From: Clostridia bacterium
Lineage (GTDB): Bacteria > Bacillota > Clostridia > Oscillospirales > CAG-272
Length of the DNA stretch: 35,429 nt
Direction of reading: 5' to 3'
Assembly (NCBI GenBank): GCA_017461825.1
Contig: JAFTXB010000207.1
Location: 1 to 35,429 of the forward strand
Shown here: one piece after another, positions 4,301 to 18,401 of the stretch
Position numbering within the stretch: the first letter of the stretch is position 1
Layout: every line of letters begins with the position of its first letter
Position numbers and translations under genes: made by a program
Notes under the pieces: model-generated
What the model was told of the DNA's origin: nothing
The model's database searches: none
Seen by the model: only the letters and a program-made list of their open reading frames with translations

Positions 4301-4424
4301 TGCAAGCGTTTCGCTTTGTGATCTGATAGAAAAGGAGATACAAGAGATATTACTTGAAGGTAGTCAAATCACATTGGAATTTGGTCCGTTTGAGATACAC
4401 ACCTTAAAAATAAAAACGAAATAA
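1380..4424 (+). CDS. GH38 alpha-mannosidase (cytoplasmic; no signal peptide)
   Basis: The start is set at MQAQSMYRK (ATG 1380 after AAGGAG). Family blocks present: IGHTHIDCAWLW, WECEGGMWVEADCN, LWLPDVFGYSAALPQI, FGFGDGGGGPT, EFHRGTYTS, NQFHDIIPGSSI. Confidence 0.9.
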   Translation: MQAQSMYRKVTSYLTALKKKARRPLGMIESIGILPCDYKTSNDLPDASLFMPYQKEQLWGCGVDTHSWFLLHTPAHKELGDKQLLLQVYTDHNGWDPNNPQFLVYVDGEMLQGLDTNHREILLDPKHTHEIYLYAYTGAQVKQSHFYAELFAFDNLVEKLYYDIKVPYDSLSHLEIYSNEYQNILAHLDSALNKLEMLEYESETPNFMTSIQEASKYMDEVFYGEFCGQLPHAPKTICIGHTHIDCAWLWTLKQTREKVQRSFSSVVELMSRYPEYRFMSSQALLYQYLKEEAPKLYERVKQLIRDGRWECEGGMWVEADCNLPSGESLVRQVLYGKRFFKEEFDVENRVLWLPDVFGYSAALPQILRKSGIEWFVTSKISWNDCNKMPYDTFDWQGIDGSRIHSYFMTAQDKVLHKEPKNVTYYVAHTTPAMVAGTIERYQQKNLNNEALLTFGFGDGGGGPTVEHLEMQRRLSYGIPGTPKTEIDFAGNFLSRLSKKIENNPRLPIWRGELYLEFHRGTYTSVFKNKKNNRMSEFLYQNSEWASTIAKLLCNQPFPKTELHRGWKMILTNQFHDIIPGSSIGPVYDQCDIDYCIIKEIGEKCLTNAKKAISDGISKDCGYVIFNPNGTVGNGLIDLDGTCAYVENIPTKGYACVKSPKTENSILIGKNTLENTYFRLHFDEDMLLTSIYDKRSDREVLANGARGNELRIYADYPDRFDAWEWQEFSSEGPYRVLTDVQSCTPVQNGVRAGFCVFRRHMESTVKQTIWLYDDIDRIDFETDVDWHQNHQMLKAAFPVDINSDRATFEIQYGSIERPTHKNTSWDAMKFETCAHKFVDFSEGGYGVSLLNDCKYGHDIHGNEMVISLIKSPTYPDPNADQGHMSCTYSLVPHAGAVDLARISSMAYALNNPMQVMPANGKRSVLPERFSVIESNKPNIICEVVKESEDGEDTILRLYENSNTKTKATLSFGFHVASVSLCDLIEKEIQEILLEGSQITLEFGPFEIHTLKIKTK

Positions 4425-4466: not shown

Positions 4467-5387
4467 TCAAGTGCTATTTTTGGTTTCTGTATTTTGTTTT
4501 TGGTCTCTGGAATAGGTTCTGTATTTATCGGGTGTCATGCCGATTTTTTTACGAAAACAGTTGTTGAAGTGATTGTAGTTTTGAAAACCGCAATCCGAGG
4601 AAACTTTATGCAAGGTTTTGTCTGAATATTGCAATTGAATTTTCGCTTGTTCAATTCTGGTTTCCATCAGTTTTTGAACAAAAGGCATACCGAACTCGCG
4701 AACGAAGAGTCTTGATGTTTGTCTGGAAGATATATTCATAGCATCCGCAAAATCTTGTAGTTTTAGCGGTTCCATGTAATGATAGCGTAACAATCGGTCA
4801 ATTTGTTCACGCCAAAACAAATTGTGTTTCAAATCGTCTGCCGAGAATAATGAAGGGCTTTTTTGGTCGGAAAGTCGTAAAAACTGAATAAATAGCATAG
4901 TACATAAGGCCTTCAAAAATACAAAGTTTCCGTATTGTTGGGTAAGAATTTCATTTTTTATTTGTTCCCATGTAACTAGGCTTTTCAATTCCGTATCTTT
5001 TACGATACGAATTGTTTTTAAAATTTCTAAAATATTTGTATAAGCATTTTTTTGCACTACGGTTGCTTGGTTGTTTGGTTTTTTCAAAGAAAAGCGAATG
5101 CTGTAAATGCAAAGCGCATTTGTAACGGATTGCTCTAATTGGTAGTGCATTTCATGAGGATGAATTAATATCCAATCTCCGGTTTCAAGATCTATTTTTT
5201 TATCATTAATAATTTGATTTCCACTTCCGGAAGCGACAAAGCGAAGTTCATAAGACTTTCCATGATTATGTGGAACGCTAATGCATTCTTCACCACAACT
5301 GTAAAGTTTCTCATTCAAATAGAAGTAAGTGTTGATGTTCCCGATCTGAACAGGTGTTTCAATAGAGATTATTCGAGGTAAAGACAT
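4467..5387 (-). CDS. AraC-family transcriptional regulator
   Basis: 306 aa. N-terminal cupin-like segment (HNHGKSYELRFVASGSG...IHPHEMHYQ). C-terminal AraC HTH (LKLQDFADAMNISSRQTSRLF...CGFQNYNHFNNCFRKKIGMTPDKYR). A GGGGGGA RBS lies upstream of the ATG at 5387. Confidence 0.85.
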   Translation of the reverse strand: MSLPRIISIETPVQIGNINTYFYLNEKLYSCGEECISVPHNHGKSYELRFVASGSGNQIINDKKIDLETGDWILIHPHEMHYQLEQSVTNALCIYSIRFSLKKPNNQATVVQKNAYTNILEILKTIRIVKDTELKSLVTWEQIKNEILTQQYGNFVFLKALCTMLFIQFLRLSDQKSPSLFSADDLKHNLFWREQIDRLLRYHYMEPLKLQDFADAMNISSRQTSRLFVREFGMPFVQKLMETRIEQAKIQLQYSDKTLHKVSSDCGFQNYNHFNNCFRKKIGMTPDKYRTYSRDQKQNTETKNST

Positions 5388-5516
5388 AATACATTCCCCC
5401 CCTTATATAGTAATTATGCAATTATATGATACCATTTTTTTTGTAAAAAAACAAGTCTATTTTGCTAAAAAAAAGTTAATAAGACAGGTCGCACAAAAAG
5501 AGGGCGTTAAATTTAA

Positions 5517-5545
5517 TTGACACAGATGTTTTTTTCTTGTATAAT
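5517..5545 (+). promoter_or_regulatory. Near-consensus sigma-70-type promoter for the BNR/GLUG locus
   Basis: TTGACA (5517-5522), exactly 17 nt spacer, TATAAT (5540-5545). It lies about 130 nt upstream of the lipoprotein ATG at 5676. Confidence 0.6.
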
Positions 5546-5675
5546 AAAACTCAACTCACAGAATCAACCAAAACGATCCCCCAAAAATTGGATGTTTCAA
5601 CCAAAAATGATTGGTGAAACAAAAAAATCACTTAACAAATTATTGTTTCAAAAAAGTCAAAGAAGGGCTGAGAAA

Positions 5676-7445
5676 ATGAAAAAAAAGATGCGAGTTTTAT
5701 TTCGCGCTATTTGTATCTTGTTGACATTTATACTACTTTTTACCTCTTGTAACAAAGGTCGTGGTGACTTGGAAGGAACGACAGATGAAACACCGGATGC
5801 TGACGGCGGTTTGCCGGAGGTGTTTCCCTATACGCTTTCGGATTTTCAAATTGTTCGCCCTGATATGCCGACTGTTACCGTAAAGGAATCTGCATTACGC
5901 TTGAATCGCACAATTAAGGAAAAGCTTGGAAGGCCACTTTCAATTCGAACCGATTTTGACAAATCAGATGAAAAAGTGTGCGAAATTCTTGTTGGTGTTA
6001 CTACACGGTCTGCCAGCCAAGAGATATTAGCAACCATATCCAACGGAGAGTATATAATCCAAACGGTACGGTCAGAGGATGGTGTTAAGATCGTACTGTT
6101 AGGTGCTACCGATATGCTAATCGATAAGGCTGTTTCCGAATTTGAAGCGATGATTAAAAATGATACCGTTGAGGTTGATGGGCAAATCAAACGCTTTTCG
6201 GTAAAGGTCAATCTTCCGACACTTTTTAAAAACTATACGTTAAAAATCAGTGATCCTATTTTAGTGGCAAAAGGTGCTCCGCTTTCACAAATTGGCTACG
6301 GACCATATCAATTTCCAAGATTATATTGGGCACAGGATGGTTCCATTTATGCAAAATGGGGTATGAGCAATGATAAAATTGTTGATACCGAGTATTTACA
6401 AGGGCAAAGTACAGCTGTTTCATCGGACGGTGGTCTAATTTGGCGTTCGGGAACCGACGGCGATGAGATTGCCTACACGCGTAGTCTTATGCAAAACGGA
6501 AAATATTTTGTAGGATTTAAGGGAAACGGAACACAAAACGTTACTTATTTAAGTCAGTATCTCCCCCTTTATACAGCTAATGATCCATCTTATTCTTCGG
6601 TTGAGTATTATTCGGTTGCAACTTTAAAAGAATATGATGATACCATTTTGTGTGAAGAATATGATCCCAAAACAGGAACCAAAACCACCTTTGAAACCAA
6701 GGTCAATTGGCCACACGCTGTTGTTGCCGTTTATAATAAGACGGGTCTATCGCCTCTTTCCAGTACCCTTTCAGTTCAAAACGGAGTTGGAGATTTGGCA
6801 ACAGAGGATGCATTGTATTTTTGCACTTATGCGCGTGGACTGGATCCTAAAACAGGTGAAGTTACACGACACAGTAAATATTTTAGCGTGTATGTCTTTA
6901 AGTCTATCGATAATGCCCGCACGTGGGATTGTATTTCCTATATTCCGATTGATTCGGATGTCATGGGAGATATTTCGGGAATCGAAGGTTTGTTTGACGG
7001 ATTTTGTGAGCCACATATGGAGCAAATGCCTGATGGTTCTTTTCTGATGCTTATACGATCGGGACATAATCATCCTTCTTATCTTGTCCGTTCTACCGAC
7101 GGCGGTATGACTTGGAGCAAACCTGAAAAATATGATGATCTTGGTGTGTTTCCACAAATTTTGACTACACCAACAGGCGTGACATTGGCTTCTTACGGTC
7201 GTCCCGGTTTGTTTTTACGTTCTACCAATGATCCATCAGGGCTTATATGGAACGATCCTGTTGAGCTCGAGTTGAGCCAATTCGGTGGAGAGGTCAAAAC
7301 CTGTGGTTACACTAATTTTCTGCTATTGAATGCGACAACTGTACTGATGATCTATTCGGATTATAATTACAGCGTCAGCGGAAAAAGAACCGATGTGGCA
7401 AAATGCATCATGGTACGCATTATCACAATTGAACCGACAACTTAA
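5676..7445 (+). CDS. Lipoprotein with an N-terminal alpha/beta extension and a C-terminal BNR/Asp-box beta-propeller (sialidase-fold) domain; paralog 1 of 3
   Basis: The start is set at MKKKMRVLFRAICILLTFILLFTSC (signal peptide plus lipobox Cys). Asp-box-like motifs: SSDGGLIW, SIDNARTWD, STDGGMTWSKP. Shares long blocks with the 7491 and 12105 proteins (YFCTYARGLD, YFSVYVFKSID, FCEPHMEQMPDGSFLMLIRSG, PSYLVRSTDGG, GVFPQ, ASYGRPGLFL). Confidence 0.75.
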   Translation: MKKKMRVLFRAICILLTFILLFTSCNKGRGDLEGTTDETPDADGGLPEVFPYTLSDFQIVRPDMPTVTVKESALRLNRTIKEKLGRPLSIRTDFDKSDEKVCEILVGVTTRSASQEILATISNGEYIIQTVRSEDGVKIVLLGATDMLIDKAVSEFEAMIKNDTVEVDGQIKRFSVKVNLPTLFKNYTLKISDPILVAKGAPLSQIGYGPYQFPRLYWAQDGSIYAKWGMSNDKIVDTEYLQGQSTAVSSDGGLIWRSGTDGDEIAYTRSLMQNGKYFVGFKGNGTQNVTYLSQYLPLYTANDPSYSSVEYYSVATLKEYDDTILCEEYDPKTGTKTTFETKVNWPHAVVAVYNKTGLSPLSSTLSVQNGVGDLATEDALYFCTYARGLDPKTGEVTRHSKYFSVYVFKSIDNARTWDCISYIPIDSDVMGDISGIEGLFDGFCEPHMEQMPDGSFLMLIRSGHNHPSYLVRSTDGGMTWSKPEKYDDLGVFPQILTTPTGVTLASYGRPGLFLRSTNDPSGLIWNDPVELELSQFGGEVKTCGYTNFLLLNATTVLMIYSDYNYSVSGKRTDVAKCIMVRIITIEPTT

Positions 7446-7490
7446 TATCAATAAGTTTTTTAGGCAGATTTAGAGAAGGGAGTTTTCAAA

Positions 7491-8711
7491 ATGATAAAGA
7501 GAAAATTTCACTTGGATCTGGGGGAGCCTACAATTGTGGTGCGCGGGCAGCAATGTAATCACGGCCCGTGGCAATTTCCCAAGTTGGCTCGTACAAAGAA
7601 TGGCTCGATTTATATCAAGTGGAGCATGGGAACTGACCGCGTAGAGGGAGGAGGCGATCTTCTCGGACAATCGCAGGCGATTTCAGATGACAGGGGCAAG
7701 ACATGGAAACTCATGCCACCCGACGATTCGGTGGCATATGACACTATGATGCCAAATGGCAAAGCGTTTGCTTATTTTTTGGGAAAAGCAGCACATGAGG
7801 TCAACTATGATCTCAAACAATATACGGTTGCCTGTGATGGGCGTGAAAATACAAGCGTATATTTTGCCGATGATATCAAGGAGCTTGACCGTACAACAAT
7901 AGCGGTTGAGTACGATACGAAAACGGGTGAGCTAAATCAATTTCCCGTTAAAATCAATTGGCCCAATATGGCATTGACTGTTTATCACCGTGACTATGGA
8001 GATATTGTTTACCCTCCGTGCCAAATGATGGCAATCAGCAACGGAGAAGGACAACTTGTCTTGGATGATGGTTTGTACTTTTGCACCTATTCAAGGGGAT
8101 TTGATTTTAAGACAGGAAAGATCACTAAACACAGCGGTCGTTATTCGGTTTATGTGTTTCGTTCTATCGACAGCGCTCGGACATGGGATATTGTTTCACA
8201 AGTCTTGGTAGACGATGACACCTATCGAACTCGCGAAAATGATCCTATTGACAGTGAAGGGTTATGTGAACCAAAAATGCGGAAAATGTTGGACGGCTCG
8301 GTAGTGATGATCATGCGGTCGGGCTTAAACTATCCCACTTGGCTGGTGCGTTCTACCGATAATTGCAAAACATGGAGCAAACCTGTCGAGTTTGATGATA
8401 TCGGCGTGTTTCCGCAAATGGTTTGTTTGGATTGCGGTGTTACGGTTGCAACCTATGGACGCCCCGAAATGCGTATTCGCGCTACTGCAGATCCGCAAGG
8501 ACTGAAATGGGAGCCACCGATCAAAATGGAGTTGAACCCGGCTGGAAAGAACAGACCTTGGTGGTGGCAATCCTGCTTTAATACTTCATTATTGGCATTG
8601 GATGGAAATTCCGTGTTGATGGCGTATAGCGATTTTAATGTTCCCAATGAAGAAGGCGAGCCAACAAAATCGATCATGGTTCGCAACATTACGGTCGTTT
8701 TTGACGAGTGA
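7491..8711 (+). CDS. BNR/Asp-box beta-propeller (sialidase-fold) protein, no signal peptide; paralog 2 of 3
   Basis: 406 aa with an AAGGGAG RBS. Motifs: ISDDRGKTWK, SIDSARTWD, STDNCKTWSKP. Paralog blocks: YFCTYSRGFD, YSVYVFRSID, LCEPKMRKMLDGSVVMIMRSG, GVFPQ, ATYGRPEM. Confidence 0.75.
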   Translation: MIKRKFHLDLGEPTIVVRGQQCNHGPWQFPKLARTKNGSIYIKWSMGTDRVEGGGDLLGQSQAISDDRGKTWKLMPPDDSVAYDTMMPNGKAFAYFLGKAAHEVNYDLKQYTVACDGRENTSVYFADDIKELDRTTIAVEYDTKTGELNQFPVKINWPNMALTVYHRDYGDIVYPPCQMMAISNGEGQLVLDDGLYFCTYSRGFDFKTGKITKHSGRYSVYVFRSIDSARTWDIVSQVLVDDDTYRTRENDPIDSEGLCEPKMRKMLDGSVVMIMRSGLNYPTWLVRSTDNCKTWSKPVEFDDIGVFPQMVCLDCGVTVATYGRPEMRIRATADPQGLKWEPPIKMELNPAGKNRPWWWQSCFNTSLLALDGNSVLMAYSDFNVPNEEGEPTKSIMVRNITVVFDE

Positions 8712-8770
8712 CCGTTCTCACACTTTTGGAATCAATTGATTCAAGATAAATTTTTGAATGGAGGAAAAAG

Positions 8771-10201
8771 ATGAAAAAAAGAACCTTTTTGGTTTTGTTG
8801 TGCTTTGTGTTGATGCTTACCACCTTATTAAGCGCGTGCAACAATGACAAGTATGACAAACAAGAGCAAACAACTGCAACAGTTGAAGAAACTGATGCGC
8901 CTACAGATCTTTTAGAGAAGGCATTGCCGAACAACATTGATTTTGGTGGACGCGAATTCGTAGCTTTGACCGAGTCTGACGGCGGATTACAGTTTAATAC
9001 CGAGGAGTTTGATGGAGATCCAGTTAACGAGGCAATGGTTACTCGAAACCTTTACATTTCCGAACGTTTCAACTGCGTTTTGACAACAGTTGAGGGAAAA
9101 GGTGATAAGCTGGAAGTTGCGCATCTAACCCAAGGTTCCGATTTTGATTTGGTTTGGCCTAATCCATTGTTTGTCGGTAGCTTTATGATCAAGGGAATGG
9201 TTACCGATTTGAAAACATTAGATTCCATCGATCTTACCGGTGAGTGGTGGAATCAAACTCACGTTGAAACGTGGACCTGTAATAACCACTTGTATGCTTT
9301 GGCAAGCGATGCCACCATTTTAGGGCAGGCGTTCGGTGCAATTGTGTATAATGTTGATGCTTATAAAGATCGTTTTTCGACAGACGATTTGTACGATGTG
9401 GTTTATGCGGGAGATTGGACGGTTGAAAAAATGGAAATCCTCGCCAAACAAGCATCCGCAAAGGTTGAAGGTGATGAAACCGGTAATTTTTACGGACTTG
9501 GCTTTTGGGAAAATCTTGCCTATGGAATGATGTACGGTATGGATGTGCGCTTGTTAAATCCGACATCAGACGGCAAATTTGAATTGGGCTATACCAATAC
9601 ATGCTTGACGGCAATTGCAGAAGGAATTGCTTCTTTGATTTATAATCCCGAAATCAATATTTTGAGCAAATACGGTGGAAGTGCAGATGCAACTGCATCA
9701 AACTTCTTTAACGCGTTCTGCGGAGGCAATTGTTTGTTTATGACCTGGGATGTTGGCTCTATGTACCAACATTTACGAGATTTGGATTTTGAAATCGGTT
9801 ATTTGCCAAATCCGAAATTGAATGAAGAACAAAATGATTACCGTGTTATGTGTTCTTCCGGTCAAATGCTCATTCCCTACTATGTAAAAGATGCAGAGCA
9901 GGCAGGCACGATCTTCAATGCACTGGGCGTTTGCTCTTATTTAGAAATCAGACCTACATATATCAACAAGGTTCTGCTTGGTAGGCTTTCTAAGCAGGCG
10001 GAACACTTTGAAATGCTGCAATTTATGCATAATAGCAAGTTTTGGGACATCGGTCTTTCGTTTGATACCACAAACGAAGCAAGAGATATTATCTACAACA
10101 CAGTGATTAAAAGTGGTACTCCTTCTGCAGTAATCGTTTATATGAAAGGACACGCATCTGCTTTTGAAACAATCGTAGAATACGCAAACAAAATCAATTA
10201 A
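8771..10201 (+). CDS. Lipoprotein, probable extracellular solute/glycan-binding protein (ABC SBP-like)
   Basis: GGAGG RBS. MKKRTFLVLLCFVLMLTTLLSAC is a signal peptide plus lipobox. The 476-aa size and composition are typical of Firmicutes sugar-binding lipoproteins. I cannot name a diagnostic motif by eye, so the family call is soft. Confidence 0.45.
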   Translation: MKKRTFLVLLCFVLMLTTLLSACNNDKYDKQEQTTATVEETDAPTDLLEKALPNNIDFGGREFVALTESDGGLQFNTEEFDGDPVNEAMVTRNLYISERFNCVLTTVEGKGDKLEVAHLTQGSDFDLVWPNPLFVGSFMIKGMVTDLKTLDSIDLTGEWWNQTHVETWTCNNHLYALASDATILGQAFGAIVYNVDAYKDRFSTDDLYDVVYAGDWTVEKMEILAKQASAKVEGDETGNFYGLGFWENLAYGMMYGMDVRLLNPTSDGKFELGYTNTCLTAIAEGIASLIYNPEINILSKYGGSADATASNFFNAFCGGNCLFMTWDVGSMYQHLRDLDFEIGYLPNPKLNEEQNDYRVMCSSGQMLIPYYVKDAEQAGTIFNALGVCSYLEIRPTYINKVLLGRLSKQAEHFEMLQFMHNSKFWDIGLSFDTTNEARDIIYNTVIKSGTPSAVIVYMKGHASAFETIVEYANKIN

Positions 10202-10371
10202 TTTCTGATCTTTCAATAAAAGGGAGATAAATCGGCTTGCAAACAAGCCGCAGGATGGTTGGTAAGTTGGGCAAGCTTTCCAACTCATCTTAACCAAAGC
10301 ACCCCAAAGGAGTGGAACGGCGTGCTTGTCGTTTCGAATTCCAAACAAAAAATAAACAAGGAGAAAAGACA

Positions 10372-12108
10372 ATGAAAAAATTACTTTCGGCTACTCTTGC
10401 CGTAATCATGATGCTTTCCATGTTGGCACTTCCTGTAGTGGCAACAGAAAGCACAGAGCCCGTTATTGGGTATTCCGCAGACTTGGTAGATCCGGTCGTT
10501 TTGACCGATATTACCAATATCGAAGGCGTTACTACGCTTAGTGAAAGCGCATATAAAATCGATTCGGTTGAAGGTATGAATAATTTTGCCGAATTGACGA
10601 AAAAGAACAACTTTGAAGGCATCACTGTTTATTTGGACGATGACATTATATACGGTGATTCCGATGAATGTAAACCTATTGCAACTGTTTCCAGCTGCTT
10701 CTTCCAAGGAACCTTTGACGGACAAGGTCACACTATCAGCAATTTTAAATATACTGCTGCATCGGGAAGACTTGGTTTGCTCTTCTTTGCAGCGGGTGCA
10801 ACCATTCAAAACCTTAAATTGGACAGTACATGTTGCTTTACCATGACGGGCGCAAGTGCTGACGGCGTAAGTTCTGTGGTAGGTATGGTTTCTACAGTGG
10901 GCGGTGTCGTAAGACCTACTACAGTTAAAAATATTTCTTCTGCGGCAACTGTTATTGCGGCTACTTCGCAAAAAGTTGCAGGTATAGTTGGCTATAAGGC
11001 AGGTGCGCAGGGATTGAACGTTGAAAATTGCGAATATATTTCAACCGCAACTGTAAACGTTAAGCAATCTTCGGGTGGTATTCTCGGATTTTCCGAGCAT
11101 GAGGGTGCAATAAGCATCCAAAATTGCAAAAACACTACATCGTTTGCTGCTACAAATACCGATGTTGCAGGAATGATTGGTCTTTCCAACGCTCCTATAA
11201 GTGTAATTGAAAATTGTGTCAATACGGGTACCATGACTTCCACTCATCAGTCTGCCGGTATCATCGGAAAATATGCATATAACGCGGCGTTCACAATTTC
11301 CAATTGTATCAATGAAGGAACTATCGGTACTGCCGCAACATCGGAGTTCTGCGGCGGTATCTTGGGACAAAATTCATCTACTGCAGCGATTACTATTATT
11401 AATTGTACAAACAATGGTGTTGTGCAAGGTAAAAACTATCTCGGCGGTATTGCCGGTTGGTTTGCAAAAAGCGGTTCTTCTATAAACGGATGTAGTAACT
11501 ACGGTGCAATTACCGCTTCGAATGCTTTTGTAGGCGGTATTTTAGGTGGTTCAGGTGCTGTTGCTACAGTTAACAATTGTGCTAACTACAAGAAAGTTAC
11601 TTTGAATCACGCTACGAATACATCTATCGGAGATATTACAGGCAGAGAAGACGCAAGCTATGTAACCGTAACAAACTCTCCTGCAAGAGCATGGACCCGC
11701 GCTATACAAAAGGGCGAAGCTTATAACAAGCAGGGGGATACTGAACACGTTTACCAAGATATCCGCGTGATTGGTATTATCGATTCTTTGAACTATGAAA
11801 AAGTAGGCTTTGAAATCGTTGCAAAGGATAAAAACGGAGAAACTGTACAAACCATCAATTTGGATTGCAATTATGTTTACGAAAGCCTTGTTGCAGTCAC
11901 CGACGGAGTGGAAGATACCATTACCGCAAATGATGATCGCAAAGGCGGTTACTACTTTGCTGTTGTAATTCAGGGCGTCCCCGCTGCCTACGAGCAATTG
12001 ACCTTTGAAATCAAGACCTACACGATTGCTAACGAGGCATCGGAAAAGCTTTACGGTGCAAGTGGAACCGTTACCGTTGAACTGGATCAAGAAGTAAAAA
12101 AAAATTGA
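10372..12108 (+). CDS. Secreted GLUG-motif repeat protein (beta-helix-like); paralog 1 of 2
   Basis: The start is set at MKKLLSATLAVIMMLSMLALPVVA (signal peptide; AAGGAG RBS). The head segment FQGTFDGQGHTISNF is followed by at least 8 repeats of about 25 aa of the form NC-x-N-x-G-x-(7-12)-GG-I-(L/I/A)-G (SSGGILG, VAGMIG, SAGIIG, CGGILG, LGGIAG, VGGILGG). Confidence 0.7.
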   Translation: MKKLLSATLAVIMMLSMLALPVVATESTEPVIGYSADLVDPVVLTDITNIEGVTTLSESAYKIDSVEGMNNFAELTKKNNFEGITVYLDDDIIYGDSDECKPIATVSSCFFQGTFDGQGHTISNFKYTAASGRLGLLFFAAGATIQNLKLDSTCCFTMTGASADGVSSVVGMVSTVGGVVRPTTVKNISSAATVIAATSQKVAGIVGYKAGAQGLNVENCEYISTATVNVKQSSGGILGFSEHEGAISIQNCKNTTSFAATNTDVAGMIGLSNAPISVIENCVNTGTMTSTHQSAGIIGKYAYNAAFTISNCINEGTIGTAATSEFCGGILGQNSSTAAITIINCTNNGVVQGKNYLGGIAGWFAKSGSSINGCSNYGAITASNAFVGGILGGSGAVATVNNCANYKKVTLNHATNTSIGDITGREDASYVTVTNSPARAWTRAIQKGEAYNKQGDTEHVYQDIRVIGIIDSLNYEKVGFEIVAKDKNGETVQTINLDCNYVYESLVAVTDGVEDTITANDDRKGGYYFAVVIQGVPAAYEQLTFEIKTYTIANEASEKLYGASGTVTVELDQEVKKN

Positions 12109-13340
12109 TTGAAAATTATCGGATAGAGCTGAGCGACGAGACTGTAATTGTTACAGGTGCCGGTACACAGCAAGAATTGGGAGATGGCCCTTACAATTTT
12201 ACAAAGGCTTGCTACACAACAAACGGTCACATTTTTGTAGAGTGGGGAATGGGAAAAGATGATCCTGATGACCCTACTCAATTGGCAGGAGAAAAATATG
12301 CCGTTTCCGAAGATGGGGGTAAAACATGGCGCAAAATGACAGATGCGGATATTCCCGTAACAGATGTCACTTTGCCTGATGGTGATCTGTTTGCTTTTTT
12401 CAATAGCGAACCGAACATCAGCAATCCATCTTGGCTTTCGTCCTATCAAAAACAAGTGGTTGATGTTGCAAATGCATCGTTCAATGTTTACTTTGCAGAA
12501 GACATTGCCGAATTCGGCGGTGATACCGTTGCTTTTAACAAGATCGATCCTGATACCGATGAAAAACAAACTGTAAATGCCACCTTTCATTGGCCTTATA
12601 TGCCTATGGTAGTAGGTGACGAGGACAATCTTGTAAGAAGTCTTTCCACTTGGATCACGTTAGGCAATTGGCACGGTATGATTGAAAAGAACGGTGTACT
12701 GTACTTTTGTTTGTATAGTCCCGGTTTTGATTCCTCTGCACAAACAAAGGAAGAGGCTGTGATGAAATACAGCGAGTTTTACAGCACCTATATTTTTAAA
12801 TCCACCGATGGCGGTGCCAATTGGTACTATCTATCGCAAATTTCGGTGGATGATGACATCTACTTCGCGCGTAACAAATCAAACACTTCGTTTGACGGAT
12901 TTTGCGAACCGATGATGGAAGTTATGCCGGACGGCTCTGTTGTCATGTTGATGCGTACCGGAAAAGACCAACCTTCCTATCTCGTCCGCTCTACCGATAA
13001 CTGCAAAACATGGAGTAAGCCCCAAAAGTTTGATGACGTTGGAGTGCTTCCTCAAATCTTGACCTTAAATTGCGGTGTTACGCTTGCAAGTTACGGTCGA
13101 CCGGGGTTGTTCCTCAATTCCACTGGAGATTCACAAGGTCTCATTTGGAATATTCCCATGGAGATACCCATGACAAACCCCAATGTTACAACCCCATCTT
13201 GTTATTACACTTATTTGTTGCCGCTGAGCGACACAACCGCACTAATGGTATATACCGATAACTATTATCCTAATGCAAGCGGTAATCCCAGAAAGACGGT
13301 TCTTGCCCGTGTAATCAGCGTGATTATTACAGATGAGTGA
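12105..13340 (+). CDS. BNR/Asp-box beta-propeller (sialidase-fold) protein, no signal peptide; paralog 3 of 3
   Basis: A TTG start at 12105 overlaps the upstream TGA (tTGA, 12105-12108). The N-terminus MIENYRIELSDETVIVTGAG aligns with MIKRKFHLDLGEPTIVVRGQ of paralog 2. Motifs: VSEDGGKTWR, STDGGANW, STDNCKTWSKP, FCEPMMEVMPDGSVVMLMRTG, GVLPQ, ASYGRPGLFL. Confidence 0.7.
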   Translation: MIENYRIELSDETVIVTGAGTQQELGDGPYNFTKACYTTNGHIFVEWGMGKDDPDDPTQLAGEKYAVSEDGGKTWRKMTDADIPVTDVTLPDGDLFAFFNSEPNISNPSWLSSYQKQVVDVANASFNVYFAEDIAEFGGDTVAFNKIDPDTDEKQTVNATFHWPYMPMVVGDEDNLVRSLSTWITLGNWHGMIEKNGVLYFCLYSPGFDSSAQTKEEAVMKYSEFYSTYIFKSTDGGANWYYLSQISVDDDIYFARNKSNTSFDGFCEPMMEVMPDGSVVMLMRTGKDQPSYLVRSTDNCKTWSKPQKFDDVGVLPQILTLNCGVTLASYGRPGLFLNSTGDSQGLIWNIPMEIPMTNPNVTTPSCYYTYLLPLSDTTALMVYTDNYYPNASGNPRKTVLARVISVIITDE

Positions 13341-13383
13341 CCAAGTTTTTCTTTATCATTATTTTATGAAAGGATATTCAATC

Positions 13384-13515
13384 ATGAAAAAAGAATATAT
13401 CTTGCCCGAAATGGATATTTGTTCCATTGACGAAGCAGACATTTTGACAGTTTCTCTTTTTAACAACCAAAATGATGCAAATCCCAAAGGGGATGTTCAC
13501 ATTTGGATTGCATAA
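13384..13515 (+). CDS. Small ORF, 43 aa (MKKEYILPEMDICSIDEADILTVSLFNNQNDANPKGDVHIWIA); function unknown
   Basis: ATG at 13384, 9 nt after AAAGGA. It fills most of an otherwise empty 240-bp gap between two co-oriented genes. No signal peptide. Acidic N-half. Confidence 0.35.
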   Translation: MKKEYILPEMDICSIDEADILTVSLFNNQNDANPKGDVHIWIA

Positions 13516-13580
13516 GATTACCCAATATAGGCTATGAGGCTTTATGCCTTGGTAAAGAAACAGCTCAAAGGAGAAAAAAC

Positions 13581-14978
13581 ATGAAAAAATTCTTATCCGT
13601 ATTTCTTACACTCACTCTCGTTCTTGTACTTGCCGTTCCTGTGTTTGCAGCCGGGAGTACATCCGATAATGTTGTCGGTTATTCTGCTGATCGAATAGAA
13701 AAAGTTTCCGATTGGTCCGCTATCCCCGATATTATGAGGTACGATGATTTCGCAAAGAATCCCGAAGCATACAAAATTTTGAATGCCGATGGCTTGAGAA
13801 AGCTGATTGAAGTGGTAAATCTTGGAGATACAATGCAAGGTGTTACCATCTATCTTGCTTATGACATTGATATGACCAGCGATAAGCCGTACACCCCCAT
13901 CGGTTACAACCGTAGTTTCGAATTCAAAGGTACGCTTGACGGTCAAGGTCATGTCATCGATAATATGAAGATTATTCCCCATGGTCATGATAACACCTCC
14001 GGTTCAATTGGCGGTGGTTTGATCGGCTACGGCTTGGGTTGTACCGTTAAGAATCTGATTCTCGGCAGCAACGTTACCGTTACCTGCACCAACAAAAAGG
14101 TGGAGGGCAGACTGGGTGGGATCATCGGCAATATGCAGGGGGGCCTTGTTGATAACTGCTATGTACTTGCTACCATCAACGGTACGCGCTATACAGGCGG
14201 TATCGTCGGCTTTACCGATTCCAAAGAGATGGAAACCGTTCAAAACTGCACCTTTGGCGGTACGGTTACCGACATAGAGCGCGGTCCTGGCGGAATTTTG
14301 GGTCTTGCTTCTCAAGATGCAACCAGAGTTACCAATTGTCGCAACACAGGAACTGTTATTTCTCAATCTGCAACGGCATCCCAGTGGAATACCATAGCCG
14401 GCGGGATTGTAGGTCGCTGCTGGGCAGCGGATTTGGTGATCACCGGATGCATCAATAACGGAACCGTTACAGGTATGACTTATGCCGGAGGTATCTTAGG
14501 CGCACAGCAGATCAAAGATGCCGAGATCGTTGATTGTATCAACTATGGAACTGTCACCACTACACATACGTTTAGCGATGCTGATACCGAGAACGGTATT
14601 TTGGGACAAGGGGCGATTGATATTAATGTTACTTTGACCAATTGTGTGGATAAAGTCGGACAAACCGATCCAACTCTTTCCACTGTTCCCACAGTAACTC
14701 CTTATTATCCCACCCAAGCGGAAATTGATGCCGCTCACGGTAAGAAGGAAGAGGATACAACTGTTACCGAGGAAAATACTACCGATCCCGAAGATAATGA
14801 AACCACAGCTTCAAATAAGGATAACGATACGACGGAATCCACCGATAAGACAGAGGCCGTGACCACGGGTTCCTCTGCAGATGATAACAAGGGAGGCTGC
14901 GCATCGGTATTTAATGGTATGGCTGTAATTCTGTTAACAGCAGGCGCAGGGCTCGTTTTTGTCAAGAAAAAGCACTAA
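13581..14978 (+). CDS. Secreted GLUG-motif repeat protein with a T/E/D-rich stalk and a C-terminal Cys-TM-KKKH anchor; paralog 2 of 2
   Basis: The start is set at MKKFLSVFLTLTLVLVLAVPVFA (signal peptide; GGAGAAAA RBS). The head FKGTLDGQGHVIDNM matches the 10372 protein. GLUG-type repeats: LGGIIG, YTGGIVG, PGGILG, AGGIVG, YAGGILG. The tail is ...SSADDNKGGCASVFNGMAVILLTAGAGLVFVKKKH. Confidence 0.7.
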   Translation: MKKFLSVFLTLTLVLVLAVPVFAAGSTSDNVVGYSADRIEKVSDWSAIPDIMRYDDFAKNPEAYKILNADGLRKLIEVVNLGDTMQGVTIYLAYDIDMTSDKPYTPIGYNRSFEFKGTLDGQGHVIDNMKIIPHGHDNTSGSIGGGLIGYGLGCTVKNLILGSNVTVTCTNKKVEGRLGGIIGNMQGGLVDNCYVLATINGTRYTGGIVGFTDSKEMETVQNCTFGGTVTDIERGPGGILGLASQDATRVTNCRNTGTVISQSATASQWNTIAGGIVGRCWAADLVITGCINNGTVTGMTYAGGILGAQQIKDAEIVDCINYGTVTTTHTFSDADTENGILGQGAIDINVTLTNCVDKVGQTDPTLSTVPTVTPYYPTQAEIDAAHGKKEEDTTVTEENTTDPEDNETTASNKDNDTTESTDKTEAVTTGSSADDNKGGCASVFNGMAVILLTAGAGLVFVKKKH

Positions 14979-14990
14979 ACACTTTTTACC

Positions 14991-15018
14991 GCAAGGGACT
15001 TCCGGGGAAGTCCCTTGC
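14991..15018. other. Perfect GC-rich hairpin between the GLUG gene and the aldolase gene
   Basis: gcaagggacttc / gaagtcccttgc, with a T-run on the 5' side and an A-run on the 3' side. There is therefore no U-tail for plus-strand termination. It may act as an RNA-stability or processing element. Confidence 0.4.
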
Positions 15019-15059
15019 AAAAAAAGACATCACCAATATACAAAGGAAAAAACCACATT

Positions 15060-15935
15060 ATGAAATTTGAAGGTGTTATGCCGGCGCTGATCACGCCGAT
15101 GACAAAAGAAGGAAAACTGAACAAACCGGTTTTGAAGAAATTGATTGAGGATCTGATCGCGCAGGGGGCCGACGGTTTTTATATCGGCGGTGCTACCGGA
15201 GAGGGCATTGTCATCAGCACAGATCTGCATAAGGAATTGACTCGCGAATCAATTGCTATTGTAAACGGTCGTATTCCCTGTATCGTACATGTTGCAAGAA
15301 TGAACTATCAAGAAACGCTTGACTTGGCACAGTATGCCGAGAGCGTTGGAGCCGTGGCTGTTTCTGCCATTCCTCCACTCTTTTATAAATACGGTGATGA
15401 CGGTATTTATGACTACTATAAGGGGCTTTGTGCCGCCGTTAAGATTCCGGTTGTCATTTACAACAACCCCAACACGGGTGTGACCTTTACTACCCCCTTG
15501 CTTGTCCGTCTGTTTTCAATTGAAAATTTGACGGCGATAAAGTGGACAAACTATGATTTTTCGTCGGTTCTGCAATTAAAGGATGTTGTCAAGGATGCAA
15601 ATATTATCAACGGTCCTGATGAGATGCTCATGGTTGGTCTTGCCGCGGGATGCGATGCTTGTATCGGTACGACCTACAATTTCCAACTTCCGCTAATCAA
15701 AAAAATCTACAATGCTTACCATGCAGGAGATATCGATCTTGCTCGTGAATTGCAAACAAAGGTTAGCAAAATTGTACAGGTAATGATTCCATGGAATGTT
15801 ATTATGTCCACAAAGCTGATCCTTTCTAAACAAGGATACGATGTCAATTATCCTATATATCCTATGCAGGCTTATACAAAAGAGCAAGAAGAACAACTCA
15901 TGAAAGAGTTGTTTGCCGCGGGATTAGAGCTGTAA
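15060..15935 (+). CDS. DapA/NanA-family class I aldolase, N-acetylneuraminate-lyase-like
   Basis: The start is set at MKFEGVMPALITPMT. Family blocks: DGFYIGGATGEG, VSAIPPLFYK, PVVIYNNPNTGV, the Schiff-base lysine context AIKWTN, and GPDEMLMVGLAAGCDACIGTTYNF, which resembles the NanA GFDEM...G-x-DGAIGSTYN block. Confidence 0.75.
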   Translation: MKFEGVMPALITPMTKEGKLNKPVLKKLIEDLIAQGADGFYIGGATGEGIVISTDLHKELTRESIAIVNGRIPCIVHVARMNYQETLDLAQYAESVGAVAVSAIPPLFYKYGDDGIYDYYKGLCAAVKIPVVIYNNPNTGVTFTTPLLVRLFSIENLTAIKWTNYDFSSVLQLKDVVKDANIINGPDEMLMVGLAAGCDACIGTTYNFQLPLIKKIYNAYHAGDIDLARELQTKVSKIVQVMIPWNVIMSTKLILSKQGYDVNYPIYPMQAYTKEQEEQLMKELFAAGLEL

Positions 15936-15942
15936 GAGATAA

Positions 15943-16479
15943 ATGGAACCAAAGATGATTGTCGGCCAGGTGATCGGTGCTTTGGTGACGGTGTTGTGCT
16001 TATTTACACCACATTTCAAGCGCAAATGGCAAATGGCGGCATCCGCCATTGTTGCGAATCTGCTATCGGCACTGAATTTTCTTTTATTGGGACAGGTTAG
16101 CGCATGTGCCATAGGGGTAGTTTCTGTGGTACAGGCAATTTTCTCCATTCGTCACGCCCGAAATGACACTTTGCCCACCAAAGCGGAAATCTGGTCGTTC
16201 GGTATCCTTTATATTTACGGAGGGTTGTTACCGTATTTGGTATCGGGAACACTTTCTGAGTTCCGTTTCTTAGATATGTTACCAATGCTTGCTGCGCTAC
16301 TATTTTTAGCCTATCTCTCACAAAAAGATGAACAGCGTATGCGCCTCTTTCTTTTGGGAAATGCAAGCATTTATTTAATTTACAATGCAATCATATTCAG
16401 CACACAATTTTTTGCGCAACTATTTACTGTTATTTCTGTGGTGGTTGCTATAATTCGTTACCGTAAAAAAACAAATTGA
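15943..16479 (+). CDS. YgjV-family small inner-membrane protein (about 5 TM)
   Basis: 178 aa and hydrophobic. The N-terminal pattern VGQVIGALVTVLCLFTPHFKRKWQMAASAIVANLLSALNFLLLG parallels E. coli YgjV (AQGVGVIAFLIGITTFFNRDERRFKKQLSVYSAVIGVHFFLLG, from memory). It begins 7 nt after the aldolase stop. The start could instead be the ATG at 15955. Confidence 0.55.
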   Translation: MEPKMIVGQVIGALVTVLCLFTPHFKRKWQMAASAIVANLLSALNFLLLGQVSACAIGVVSVVQAIFSIRHARNDTLPTKAEIWSFGILYIYGGLLPYLVSGTLSEFRFLDMLPMLAALLFLAYLSQKDEQRMRLFLLGNASIYLIYNAIIFSTQFFAQLFTVISVVVAIIRYRKKTN

Positions 16480-16485
16480 CTGGAG

Positions 16486-16524
16486 GGCTGTCTCAATAGT
16501 GGTTTCATCCCTGTTGAGACAGCC
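16486..16524 (+). terminator. Hairpin downstream of the YgjV-like gene
   Basis: ggctgtctcaa (16486-16496) pairs with ttgagacagcc (16514-16524). The U-tail is weak. Confidence 0.4.
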
Positions 16525-16622
16525 TTGAAAAATTTAGAGTATTTTATAAATGAAATTGCAAAAACTACCGAGTTGAATCGCGAGGTTGAAATTGTTTTTT
16601 CAGAAAATTAATAGGAGCGATT

Positions 16623-18245
16623 ATGAAAATAAGATTACCCGATATTGCATATGTTTTCAATGAGGAAAAAGAGTGCCGTACAATTAAATCGGAAATAAAT
16701 GATAGCATACTCGTATATTCGATACAAAATTCTTCATTAAAAGTTTCCATCATTGATAATGGCGAGGCATTGACTTATATTGTGCTTAAGTGGTTTTTAA
16801 AGGAGGATGAAAAGCGCCATGAACCGATACGGATCCTTGGAGATGCTTGGGAGAGAGGATACGGTGATCTCGAATGGCGAGGCATCGTACAGGATAGAAG
16901 CATGCCATGGTACTGCTTGGTTTCCAATGGTAGCGATACCGAACTTGATTACACCAATCGCCATACCGAAGGCTTTGGTGTAAAGGTTCGCCCTTCCGCT
17001 TTTTGCAGTTGGCAATATCTCGGAGATGAGGTGGTACTATTCTTAGATATACGATGTGGAGCAAAGGGTGTGCTATTAAACGGGAAGACTTTGGATGTAG
17101 CCGAAGTCCTGTTTAAAGACTTTTACAATCAGTCGGCGTATCAAAGCGGATGTGATTTTTGCAAATTAATGTGTACCGATCCGATTTTTCCAAAAGAAAC
17201 GGTTTATGGGTTTAACAATTGGTATTATGCCTACGGTGTCAGTTCTGATGCCGAGATAATGGAGGACACCGAACGTTTGGTTACTTCTTGCCAGGGAACA
17301 AATGTCAAACCCTATATGGTACTTGACGACGGCTGGCAAATCAATCGCGCCGATGCACCTTGGGACAGGGGCAATTCTCGCTTTCCGGACATGAGAGCCC
17401 TTGCAGAAAAGATTAAACAAAAAGGCGCTCGCCCCGGAATTTGGATTCGCCCCCTATCCGTTAGTGGGGAATCTTGTGACATTCCTGTTCAATGGAGACT
17501 GGAGCGAGAGCCGAGATATCTCGACCCTTCCCGTCCCGAAGTTTTGAAATATGTAGCAAAATGTGTTTCGACCTTAACCGATTGGGGATATGAATTGATC
17601 AAATATGATTTTGTAACCTTTGATATTATCGGGAAATGGGGATTTTCGGGTCCCGGTGTTTTGGCAGACGGAAACTGGAGCTTTTATAATCGAAGCAAAA
17701 CAACGGCAGAGATCATCGTTGATCTGTATCGTTGTATTCGTAACGCTTCCTCAGGTGCAGTACTGATTGGATGTAATGCAATCGGTCATCTATGCGCGGG
17801 TATGGTGGAAATCAATCGAACAGGTGATGATACCAGCGGAAAAGATTGGAAACGCACGCGCAGAATGGGGATAAATACGCTTGCGTTTCGCTCCATTCAG
17901 AATCGCGCATTTTACATGGCAGATGCAGATTGTGTGCCCATTACCCCAGCGGTATCATTTCAAGTAAATCGCCATTGGTTAAAGCTACTTTCGGCAAGCG
18001 ATTCGCCACTGTTTATCAGTTGGAACCCTCTTTGTAATGATGAGAAGATTAAAAAATCCGTAAGAGATGCCTTGATTCGAAATGCAGAAGGAACCGACAA
18101 GCTGATCCCTTTGGATTGGATGGAAAACAATTGCCCTTGTAAATGGTTGTTGAACGGTGAAAAAATAACAATTTCTTGGTTTAATAAAGAGATTTCACCA
18201 ATGACATCTCGTTTTATAGAGGTTATGCCTTGGGGGACTAGATAA
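16623..18245 (+). CDS. Clan GH-D alpha-galactosidase-like glycoside hydrolase (GH36/GH27-like), cytoplasmic
   Basis: TAGGAG RBS. MVLDDGWQ...RFPDMRALAEKIKQKGARPGIWIRP matches the (beta/alpha)8 DDGW block. YELIKYDF is a K-x-D nucleophile context. RTGDDTS is a candidate acid/base region. At 540 aa it is shorter than typical GH36 enzymes. Confidence 0.6.
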   Translation: MKIRLPDIAYVFNEEKECRTIKSEINDSILVYSIQNSSLKVSIIDNGEALTYIVLKWFLKEDEKRHEPIRILGDAWERGYGDLEWRGIVQDRSMPWYCLVSNGSDTELDYTNRHTEGFGVKVRPSAFCSWQYLGDEVVLFLDIRCGAKGVLLNGKTLDVAEVLFKDFYNQSAYQSGCDFCKLMCTDPIFPKETVYGFNNWYYAYGVSSDAEIMEDTERLVTSCQGTNVKPYMVLDDGWQINRADAPWDRGNSRFPDMRALAEKIKQKGARPGIWIRPLSVSGESCDIPVQWRLEREPRYLDPSRPEVLKYVAKCVSTLTDWGYELIKYDFVTFDIIGKWGFSGPGVLADGNWSFYNRSKTTAEIIVDLYRCIRNASSGAVLIGCNAIGHLCAGMVEINRTGDDTSGKDWKRTRRMGINTLAFRSIQNRAFYMADADCVPITPAVSFQVNRHWLKLLSASDSPLFISWNPLCNDEKIKKSVRDALIRNAEGTDKLIPLDWMENNCPCKWLLNGEKITISWFNKEISPMTSRFIEVMPWGTR

Positions 18246-18355: not shown

Positions 18356-18401
18356 GCTATCTTAATGTGACAGCCCCCTTTTTTTGTAAAAAATACCCCG
18401 T

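Follow-up and report, generated by a model that had tools for sequence, protein, structure and literature searches.

What does a bacterium harvest with three sialidase-like propeller proteins that lack the first catalytic arginine, a relative of N-acetylneuraminate lyase (NanA) and a membrane protein of the YgjV family, all encoded in one row of genes? The question is raised by a locus in a 35,429-nucleotide stretch of DNA (contig JAFTXB010000207.1 of assembly GCA_017461825.1, analysed whole and hereafter called the window) from an uncultured ruminant-gut Clostridia bacterium. The locus is probably a sugar-harvesting operon of this bacterium. Our preferred reading, to which we assign a probability of roughly 0.5, is that it serves sialoglycan utilisation, with Neu5Ac (N-acetylneuraminic acid), Neu5Gc (N-glycolylneuraminic acid) or KDN (ketodeoxynonulosonic acid) being harvested and YgjV as the candidate importer. 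An earlier note on this DNA had proposed the release and cleavage of an acidic sugar and favoured a substrate or chemistry different from that of textbook sialic acid use. The release-and-cleavage part has gained ground, in that a module of lipoprotein, lyase and YgjV recurs beside GH156 sialidase homologues and a GH156 homologue lies beside a propeller gene, but a different substrate is not required. Foraging for sialic acid influences the make-up of the bacterial community on gut mucus, and what is known of it comes almost wholly from GH33 sialidases, NanA and eight families of transporters.

The three propeller genes, BNR_A (5676–7445), BNR_B (7491–8711) and BNR_C (12105–13340), lie on the forward strand and encode paralogues with pairwise identities of 38–39% and three Asp boxes each, as had been described. 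BNR_A carries a lipoprotein signal (…LFTSC) and an extra N-terminal domain of ~200 amino acids, which has a faint GH67N-like match, ahead of its six-bladed propeller. BNR_B and the more divergent BNR_C have no signal peptide, and BNR_B is presumably cytoplasmic for this reason. Pfam and NCBIfam profile scans of all window open reading frames (ORFs) of at least 100 amino acids returned most of the families expected from the earlier note, namely Glug (in the surface protein GLUG2), DHDPS, Imp-YgjV and, over ~85 amino acids, BNR_2 in BNR_C (45.9 bits against a threshold of 31.4), but left BNR_A (25.4 bits) and BNR_B (29.7 bits) below the BNR_2 threshold. Homologues of BNR_C numbered 232 in a collection of 5.8 billion proteins, all of them unnamed or automatically named 'exo-alpha-sialidase [Clostridia bacterium]'. 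They take two forms: one is cytoplasmic and ~400 amino acids long, and the other, of ~580–610 amino acids, has an additional N-terminal domain and either a signal peptide or a lipobox. Among 1.84 billion representatives at 50% identity, a profile search yielded 334 clusters with E values below 1e-30 and 1544 with E values below 1e-10, and a scan of one genome per species gave 35 loci, mostly in metagenome-assembled genomes (MAGs) of uncultured Clostridia, Oscillospiraceae and Acutalibacteraceae, largely from the ruminant gut, with a few in MAGs of the Planctomycetes lineage and Verrucomicrobia.

The AlphaFold2 (AF2) model of BNR_C, built on 63 sequences, is a six-bladed propeller with a predicted local distance difference test score (pLDDT) of 94 and a predicted template modelling (TM) score of 0.92. 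In a Foldseek search of the PDB the best match was 5HX0 (Dfer_1899 of Dyadobacter fermentans; E = 4.5e-12, TM-score 0.57–0.63, 16–17% identity), followed by GH33 sialidases, NEU1 and a GH181 sialidase at TM-scores of ~0.45–0.5 and 12–16% identity. 5HX0 was also the best sequence-profile match in the PDB (E = 2e-10), and profile matches to sialidases were local only, covering ~80 amino acids at E values of 3e-8 or above. Since a literature search on Dfer_1899 and 5HX0 found nothing, this match gives no functional information. Like the window family, 5HX0 lacks the arginine of the RIP motif (it reads AAFP) and retains the Glu…Arg segment, but at 16–17% identity it belongs to a different clade. 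Within the sialidase superfamily the propellers make up a clade of their own, far from its characterised members, and the earlier statement that they are not canonical GH33 enzymes stands.

The catalytic positions were assessed in an alignment of the 63 members and in 133 further representatives, counted where aligned; residues are numbered as in BNR_C. When the family profile was aligned to NanI of Clostridium perfringens, 'hyQFpkl' fell on 'nYRIPAL' and 'fcE268pmm…lMR284tG' fell on 'ltEcqv…fMRn', so that the RIP arginine is replaced while the glutamate and the second arginine are retained. The motifs QFPRL, QFPKL and NFTKA, which the earlier note had read at the RIP position of the three window propellers, lie on the YRIP of NanI, and its observation that the first catalytic arginine is not evident extends to the whole family: position 31 is Gln in 57, Asn in 4 and Cys in 2 of the 63 members, and Gln in 111, Asn in 4 and another residue in 3 of the further representatives (Gln or Asn in 115/118), and it is never Arg. 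Asp52, Glu268, Arg284, Arg332 and Cys366 are invariant among the 63 members and occur in 119/119, 131/131, 132/132, 127/131 and 129/130 of the further representatives, respectively. Arg338 is Arg in 58 and Lys in 3 of the members (Arg in 115 and Lys in 7 of the further representatives), and Tyr368 is present in 61/63 members and in 106 of 130 further representatives, the others having Asn (21) or His (3). BNR_A is the only paralogue in the window with the full set of Gln31, Asp52, Glu268, Arg284, Arg332, Arg338, Cys366, Tyr368 and Arg402.

In the secondary structure of the model, Gln31, Glu268 and Tyr368 open the innermost strands of blades 1, 4 and 6, whereas Asp52, Arg284 and Arg332 lie just past second strands, Arg332 occupying the corresponding end of the next blade's strand B. 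These positions would correspond to the D–A and B–C loops that form the active face of the propeller. The spacings (Glu-16-Arg-48-Arg-36-Tyr and Gln-21-Asp) resemble those that we take to be typical of GH33, for example Glu260, Arg276, Arg342 and Tyr370, and Arg68 and Asp92, of the Micromonospora viridifaciens sialidase. The family shares with GH33 enzymes such as NanI and the M. viridifaciens sialidase the six-bladed propeller, the Asp boxes, and the aligned glutamate and second arginine; a further invariant arginine, as well as a tyrosine and an aspartate, would lie at the expected places and spacings, and its one secreted copy in the window has an extra N-terminal domain as well. It differs in having Gln or Asn for the RIP arginine and a cysteine two residues before the tyrosine, in the mostly cytoplasmic, ~400-residue form of its members, and in the low structural similarity given above.

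Loss of the RIP arginine was one of the features behind the earlier suggestion of a different substrate, but on its own it does not speak for one. In the GH156 sialidase EnvSia156 the carboxylate is held by Arg129, Arg202 and Asn346, and the enzyme hydrolyses Neu5Ac and Neu5Gc and binds KDN (PMC6811678). Because GH156 holds the sialic acid carboxylate with two arginines and an asparagine, the exchange of Arg for Gln need not mean another substrate, and Arg284, Arg332 and Gln31 would form a similar arrangement of two arginines and an amide. A literature search for a sialidase-fold family without the first arginine found no paper. We also considered whether the invariant Arg402 (ILVRxI) could stand in for the RIP arginine via a shifted strand; this idea was dropped because the model places Arg402 in the middle of strand three of the last blade, at a distance from the D–A and B–C loops.

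The second line of evidence comes from the lyase. The gene at 15060–15935 on the forward strand encodes a class I aldolase of the DHDPS family (PF00701, 201 bits), as the earlier assignment to the NanA/DapA family had it. Among its 35 best matches in the PDB, 34 are NanA-type (N-acetylneuraminate or acylneuraminate) lyases, with E = 3e-39 for 1HL2 of Escherichia coli, and most DHDPS entries as well as YagE match more weakly, at E = 1e-27 or worse (one DHDPS at E = 7e-31). Its best NCBIfam model is N-acetylneuraminate lyase PRK04147, at 213.8 bits against a cut-off of 281; TIGR00683 scores 170 against 382. An alignment of six homologues, each with a YgjV gene directly after it, showed that the Schiff-base Lys165, Tyr137, Thr48, Gly189, Asp191, Glu192 and Ser/Thr208 are retained in all, residue 208 being Thr in the window and Ser in the group of a related locus, L042. 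In NanA, Asp191, Glu192 and Ser208 bind the glycerol tail of the nine-carbon sugar. As judged from these sequences, the aldolase is closest to N-acetylneuraminate lyases, with the enzymes of E. coli and Staphylococcus aureus as its nearest characterised relatives, and is a NanA-like subfamily member rather than a certified NanA; Tyr190 is replaced by Pro in the YgjV-paired lyases. Because the sugar-binding residues of NanA are retained, the ordinary sialic acids Neu5Ac, Neu5Gc and KDN are at least as likely a substrate as an exotic one.

The lyase gene is followed, 7 nucleotides past its stop codon, by the gene for the YgjV-family protein (15943–16479, forward strand), a predicted polytopic membrane protein of 178 amino acids with ~6–7 hydrophobic segments by hydropathy, whose earlier identification is borne out by PF10688 (57.2 bits against a cut-off of 23.5; residues 7–176 on profile positions 2–158 of 159). 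This gene pair recurs in six distinct loci, with YgjV identities from 66% down to 32%, and resembles what we take to be the adjacency of nanA and nanT in E. coli. A kinship of YgjV to SWEET- or PnuC-type transporters, to which its Pfam clan may point, is not confirmed by any PDB or Pfam match, and a Pfam scan at relaxed thresholds returned no related family. Known sialic-acid transporters fall into eight families (ST1–ST8) within MFS, SSS, TRAP and ABC (PMC8461474). YgjV belongs to none of these; it may be an importer of the released acid sugar, and possibly a new kind of sialic-acid importer.

The gene neighbourhoods of related loci connect these components to sialidases. The full arrangement of the window recurs in L001, a locus of the roe-deer caecum MAG RGIG3903, with identities of 85% for the aldolase, 66% for YgjV and 64% for BNR_C, and an extra BNR_2 gene that is a closer relative of 5HX0 (E = 3e-17). 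A fragment, L048, has GLUG, aldolase (78%) and YgjV (64%) genes in this order. A different enzyme occupies the place of the propellers in L042, which reads AraC, lipoprotein (30% identity), a secreted protein with a GLUG1-like C-terminal domain, a small ORF, a LamG surface protein with the cysteine, helix and basic tail of GLUG2, two GH156 homologues, NanA-like lyase (43%), YgjV (49%), an MFS_1 transporter and GH127. The two GH156 homologues, one cytoplasmic and one a lipoprotein, match the EnvSia156 structure 6RZD at E = 2.9e-28 and retain Arg129, His134 and Arg202. The module of lipoprotein, NanA-like lyase and YgjV is therefore found again beside GH156 sialidase homologues. L011 has three genes in direct succession, one of the same MFS family as that of L042, one for a GH156 homologue and one of the propeller family, and in L025 a gene of this MFS family abuts a propeller gene. 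In L046, YgjV (52%) lies between two 5HX0-like BNR_2 proteins, near a homologue of the lipoprotein (31%) and a pair of surface proteins.

GH156 and the propellers thus fill the same place in L042 and the window and abut in L011, each system has a lipoprotein and a cytoplasmic copy, and the propellers would share the GH156 triad of two arginines and one amide. GH156 nevertheless has an unrelated (β/α)8 barrel fold and an inverting His/Asp mechanism, and it does not occur in the window. GH156 sialidases are known from gut Clostridia, and the neighbourhood analysis of that study listed CAZyme families only (bioRxiv 10.1101/2022.06.28.497753).

Under the sialoglycan reading, sialylated glycans would be captured at the surface by the lipoprotein propeller BNR_A, by two GLUG proteins, one of them membrane-anchored, and by a further lipoprotein of 476 amino acids. 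The terminal acid sugar would then be cleaved off at the cell surface by a sialidase-type centre in which the carboxylate is bound by Arg284, Arg332 and the Gln31 amide, Tyr368 and Glu268 form the nucleophile pair and Asp52 serves as acid/base. YgjV would import the free sugar acid, and the NanA-like lyase would split it into pyruvate and a hexose or N-acyl-hexosamine to be handled by genes elsewhere in the genome. The cytoplasmic BNR_B and BNR_C may have imported sialyl-oligosaccharides or modified sialic acids as their substrates, or they may be decaying copies. Such a locus would be modular, with a part for capture and cleavage at the surface (BNR_A, the GLUG pair, the lipoprotein and a small ORF), one for import (YgjV) and one for cleavage of the sugar acid (the lyase), and its enzyme slot could be filled by either GH156 or the new propeller clade.

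Several observations weigh against this reading. The propellers are putative enzymes: no member of the family gave a full-length alignment to any characterised sialidase, and no activity is known for members of their clade or that of 5HX0. The catalytic roles proposed for Arg332, Tyr368 and Asp52 follow from invariance, secondary-structure position and spacing rather than from superposition. Cys366 (motif S-C-x-Y-T) is better conserved than the putative nucleophile Tyr368, which is Asn in the 21 of 130 representatives mentioned above and in BNR_B (SCFNT), although the L001 orthologue of BNR_B (63% identical) retains the tyrosine. The lyase falls below both NanA equivalog cut-offs; its Ser47 is replaced by Ala in the window (GATGE for GSTGE) and by Gly in the L042 group, and Tyr110 is Phe in all six lyases, a one-residue register shift being possible at this position. 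If the free monosaccharide alone is imported, there is little reason for two 'sialidases' in the cytoplasm. For YgjV, a literature search found nothing functional and no demonstrated substrate, a 31-sequence profile had no match in the PDB at E ≤ 10, and homologues at ~40% identity adjoin unrelated glycosidases. As a family, YgjV is therefore carbohydrate-associated rather than specific for sialic acid. Neither the window nor the flanks of the L001 locus contain nanE, nanK, nagA or nagB. Finally, ~30 other propeller loci have neither lyase nor YgjV, and the second gene context of the propellers, found in seven loci and described below, looks unrelated to sialic acid use.

The last of these points feed the best surviving alternative, which we nevertheless consider unlikely: the propellers would be glycosidases or lyases for a non-acidic substrate, like the GH93 arabinanases of the same fold, and the aldolase–YgjV pair an independent cassette for a free keto-deoxy sugar acid, appended to the operon in one lineage by chance. 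The co-occurrence of propeller, GLUG, aldolase and YgjV genes proposed for checking in the earlier note was narrow, the full set being present only in the window and L001 and, in part, in the L048 fragment, so that aldolase linkage among more than 40 loci of the family is restricted to the window, L001 and probably L048. Since the other propeller loci lack the aldolase, the link is lineage-specific and not a family trait, and the aldolase was rejected as a family-wide partner of the propellers. The contexts of the family are heterogeneous (the second context, housekeeping genes, tandem triplets on their own), the aldolase–YgjV pair moves as a unit into loci with other enzymes, and the nearest structure, 5HX0, is without known function. 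Against these stand the two invariant arginines and the Tyr/Glu pair at sialidase-like positions, a hallmark of action next to a carboxylate that, to our knowledge, GH93 does not have, and the links to sialic acid that do not run through the aldolase: GH156 beside the propeller in L011, BNR_2 genes flanking YgjV in L046, and the MFS family of L011 and L025 that is common to the GH156 locus L042.

Next, and likewise doubtful, comes release of a different ulosonic acid, either 3-deoxy-manno-octulosonic acid (Kdo) or 3-deoxy-lyxo-heptulosaric acid (Dha) from plant rhamnogalacturonan-II (RG-II) or bacterial glycans, or pseudaminic or legionaminic acid. YgjV would import the acid and the aldolase would yield pyruvate and a pentose or another fragment for whose use nanE/K and nagA/B are dispensable, which would fit the lack of catabolic genes for N-acetylmannosamine and N-acetylglucosamine in the window and beside the L001 locus. 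This alternative draws on the family-wide exchange of Arg for Gln at the RIP position, but a triad of two arginines and an amide is compatible with sialic acid, as EnvSia156 shows. Similarly, the lyase that misses the NanA cut-offs and is altered at Ser47 and Tyr110 retains Asp191, Glu192 and Ser/Thr208. YgjV homologues also neighbour GH127 in L042 and GH106 in L044, families that include RG-II-active enzymes, and E. coli ygjV presumably lies beside hexuronate genes; the GH109, GH2 and GH38 neighbours, however, point to host glycans or N-glycans over pectin, and GH156, the only experimentally characterised family in the co-occurrence network, acts on Neu5Ac and Neu5Gc and binds KDN.

A reading in which the propellers, or BNR_B and BNR_C at the minimum, have no catalytic function and instead bind glycans, serve as scaffolds or are duplicates in decay, with the working enzymes elsewhere, is very improbable: Tyr368 is lost from BNR_B, and Gln31, Pro33, Arg338 and Trp27 from BNR_C, where most are kept in the L001 orthologues, but BNR_A retains every conserved residue, all three ORFs are intact and full-length, and throughout the family, over hundreds of clusters, Asp52, Glu268, Arg284 and Arg332 are invariant, which speaks for catalysis. 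In BNR_C, Asn31, Thr33, Asn338 and Asp27 replace Gln31, Pro33, Arg338 and Trp27, with Tyr368 retained; in L001 (orthologues at 4564–5757 and 9816–11027) most residues altered in BNR_B and BNR_C are unchanged, the BNR_C orthologue having Ser33. As far as the alignment goes, these losses suggest that selection has been relaxed or the function altered in this strain.

A more ambitious form of the sialoglycan reading is put forward only tentatively and links two proposals: the Gln-for-Arg propellers would be a new GH family of sialidases, or of enzymes acting on modified sialic acids (cytoplasmic copies, for instance, might hydrate anhydro- or dehydro-sialic acids), and YgjV a ninth family of sialic-acid importers. 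In that case the propeller triad of two arginines and an amide would have arisen independently of GH156, YgjV would be an importer from a superfamily outside MFS, SSS, TRAP and ABC and thereby provide a first function for a widespread orphan family, and the lipoprotein, the two surface proteins with swappable N-termini and the ORF of 39–58 codons would form an undescribed Gram-positive surface module. Were the sialoglycan reading to hold, an uncharacterised sialidase-fold clade of hundreds of sequence clusters from ruminant-gut Clostridia and some Planctomycetes would be added, and the 'obligatory' arginine triad could be two arginines and a glutamine in the propeller fold, comparable to the two arginines and an asparagine of GH156. 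The locus offers a concrete, testable first function for the YgjV family, one of whose members is from E. coli. Searches of gut metagenomes that rely on canonical nan genes alone may underestimate sialic-acid use. Should the propellers act on something else, they would still be a sizeable unexplored group of enzymes with a high-confidence model.

The locus differs from a canonical nan cluster (nanE, nanK or an AGE-type epimerase, nagA, nagB and an ST1–ST8 transporter), as the earlier note had recognised: no nanE, nanK, nagA, nagB, ABC permease or ATPase gene was found in the window scans. The L001 locus, its closest relative, borders on pyrimidine-synthesis genes, and the remaining nan genes are therefore not its immediate neighbours. 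Relative to NanA systems of E. coli and S. aureus, the lack of nanE/K thus adds to the altered Ser47, Tyr110 and Tyr190 of the lyase. With Gram-positive polysaccharide utilisation loci the window shares a divergent AraC gene, a surface lipoprotein, extracellular and intracellular glycosidase-like paralogues, and nearby GH38, GH36-like and GH2 genes. It differs from them in the surface-protein pair with swappable N-terminal domains (GLUG, LamG or other) and the ORF of 39–58 codons, in a lipoprotein that is not a recognisable substrate-binding protein (SBP), and in the absence of ABC permease and ATPase genes from ~9 related loci.

The region at about 5676–18245 is most likely one AraC-controlled operon. 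Nine genes in a row on the forward strand, from BNR_A through a GH36-like gene, are separated by short gaps or overlap. They follow a sigma-70-type promoter (TTGACA-17 nt-TATAAT, 5517–5545, forward strand) that matches the consensus at 12/12 positions and is the only such site within 5300–19100; the near-consensus promoter and common orientation noted earlier are thus confirmed, the promoter being perfect. The divergent AraC-family gene (4467–5387, reverse strand; HTH_18 and AraC_binding/Cupin matches), with counterparts at the equivalent position in L001, L036 and L042, is likely the local regulator. Because the only strong forward-strand terminator in 5300–19100 (17-bp stem and T-run, 18308–18349) lies behind the GH36-like gene (16623–18245, forward strand), the transcription unit most likely takes in this gene. 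The AraC, GH38 and GH36-like genes described earlier as flanks are present, then, with the last of them most likely inside the operon. Its product is a putative α-galactosidase of the GH36/clan-D type, with a weak Melibiase match (20 bits) and a match to the PDB α-galactosidase 6LCJ (E = 1e-7) in which the DDGWQ and K-x-D-F motifs align; the gene is not conserved in L001. A link of GH38, GH36-like or GH2 genes to the propeller family was rejected, as none is conserved in related loci apart from a GH2 gene downstream in L036.

The lipoprotein gene (8771–10201, forward strand) encodes a protein of ~475 amino acids from an unannotated family with the signal …LLSAC. Homologues at 22–44% identity occur in L001, L002, L036, L038, L042, L044 and L046. 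The earlier designation as an orphan binding lipoprotein holds as far as the lipoprotein is concerned, but no significant SBP match was found: TIGR03850 reached E = 0.0033 (16 bits against 299), SBP_bac_1 gave E = 0.16 in one of nine homologues, and a nine-sequence profile retrieved no SBP and nothing relevant from the PDB. A homologue search returned 2 matches among 8000 candidates, and an AF2 model on 3 sequences had a pLDDT of 32. Together with the lack of BPD_transp and ABC_tran genes in the window, L036, L038, L042 and L046, a bona fide SBP could not be established from these faint signals.

The two secreted GLUG proteins are paralogues (29% identity over 429 columns, E = 2e-31), as stated in the earlier note, but GLUG1 (10372–12108, forward strand), a GLUG-like β-helix protein, has no Pfam GLUG match and is identified by its paralogy to GLUG2 alone. 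Its C-terminal β-sandwich domain is common to non-GLUG surface proteins of related loci and is 35% identical (E = 8e-12) to the C-terminus of a 396-amino-acid protein of L042. GLUG2 (13581–14978, forward strand) contains GLUG repeats (PF07581, 39.1 bits against a cut-off of 20.5) and matches the GLUG domain of a putative IgA1 protease, 3N6Z (E = 2e-6). It ends in an acidic Thr/Glu/Asp linker, …GGCAS, a hydrophobic helix and a KKKH anchor. A common tail of this kind, with an acidic Thr/Glu/Asp/Pro-rich linker, G-C-[GAK]-S, a hydrophobic helix and K/R-K-K-[DEH], was observed in otherwise unrelated surface proteins, at 14880–14978 of the window (GLUG2) and at the C-termini of the proteins at 4105–5718 in L042, 12028–13629 in L046 and 16853–18685 in L019. 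From its sequence the tail looks like an anchoring or sorting signal with a conserved cysteine, and NCBIfam gave no recognition of it.

GLUG and propeller are fused in one protein of 933 amino acids in L038 (10083–12884; Pfam Glug and BNR_2), and GLUG–propeller fusions lend Rosetta-stone-type support to a functional tie between the GLUG and BNR genes, which are separate in the window. Probable fusions that match both queries were also seen at 880–3702 in L002 (940 amino acids) and at 14656–18603 in L003 (1315 amino acids).

A small ORF of 43 codons (13384–13515, forward strand; MKKEYILPEMDICSIDEADILTVS…), absent from the earlier description, lies directly upstream of the anchored surface protein GLUG2. 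Homologues of 39–58 codons occupy the same position in L001 (11601–11747), L002 (8074–8193), L036 (18520–18675), L038 (12901–13026), L041 (184–315), L042 (3936–4079), L044 (16617–16745, reverse strand) and L046 (13675–13851, reverse strand), usually directly upstream of a membrane-anchored surface protein. They share the consensus MKKxYxxPEhxhxxhxxEDhhTxS, have no signal peptide and gave no Pfam or NCBIfam match. The product may serve as a subunit or, alternatively, as a modified peptide or regulatory leader.

Propeller genes occur in several further settings. Tandem propellers with the lipoprotein and surface proteins, but no aldolase, are found in L002, L003, L036 and L038. L005, L007 and L008 have a propeller gene beside a 5HX0-like BNR_2 gene and GH109, a BNR_2 gene adjoins the propeller in L031, and some propeller genes are solitary among housekeeping genes. 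The second context comprises seven loci (L009, L010, L012, L013, L019, L020 and L028), with the propeller at about 10001–11200 in most of them. Its order is a PHP-domain protein, YhhN, a PanE/ApbA-like reductase, the propeller, a calcineurin-like phosphoesterase and arrays of secreted proteins, in some cases with an SGNH/GDSL esterase.

Upstream of the operon lie the divergent AraC gene, a GH38 α-mannosidase gene and a second AraC gene. The ORFs of the latter two, at 1239–4424 (forward strand) and 446–1345 (reverse strand), overlap by ~100 nucleotides as listed. Translation of GH38 probably begins at a Met further downstream, such as that of MDTAYFYE…, and the genes would therefore be divergent neighbours without overlap. 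The downstream flank contains a He_PIG surface protein, a third AraC gene, an MFS_2 transporter, GH2, a GHKL/LytTR pair and an HTH_3 protein. Rfam families and tRNAs were absent from the window scans. The GHKL histidine kinase (HATPase_c_5) and LytTR response regulator (31764–33781, reverse strand) form an Agr/Fsr-like two-component pair, for which no obvious AgrB or AgrD genes were seen in the window. The surface protein, encoded directly after the operon terminator (19015–26049), comprises 2344 amino acids rich in Thr, Ala and Gly, with a signal peptide, He_PIG Ig-like domains, and a single transmembrane helix and short acidic cytoplasmic tail at its C-terminus. The GC content is ~0.40–0.44 in the operon, 0.50–0.57 across the He_PIG gene and the block of AraC, MFS_2, GH2 and two-component genes, and 0.37 at 34–35 kb. 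This rise, spanning 19015–33000, possibly reflects a horizontally acquired segment, an assembly join or, in part, the composition of the giant protein.

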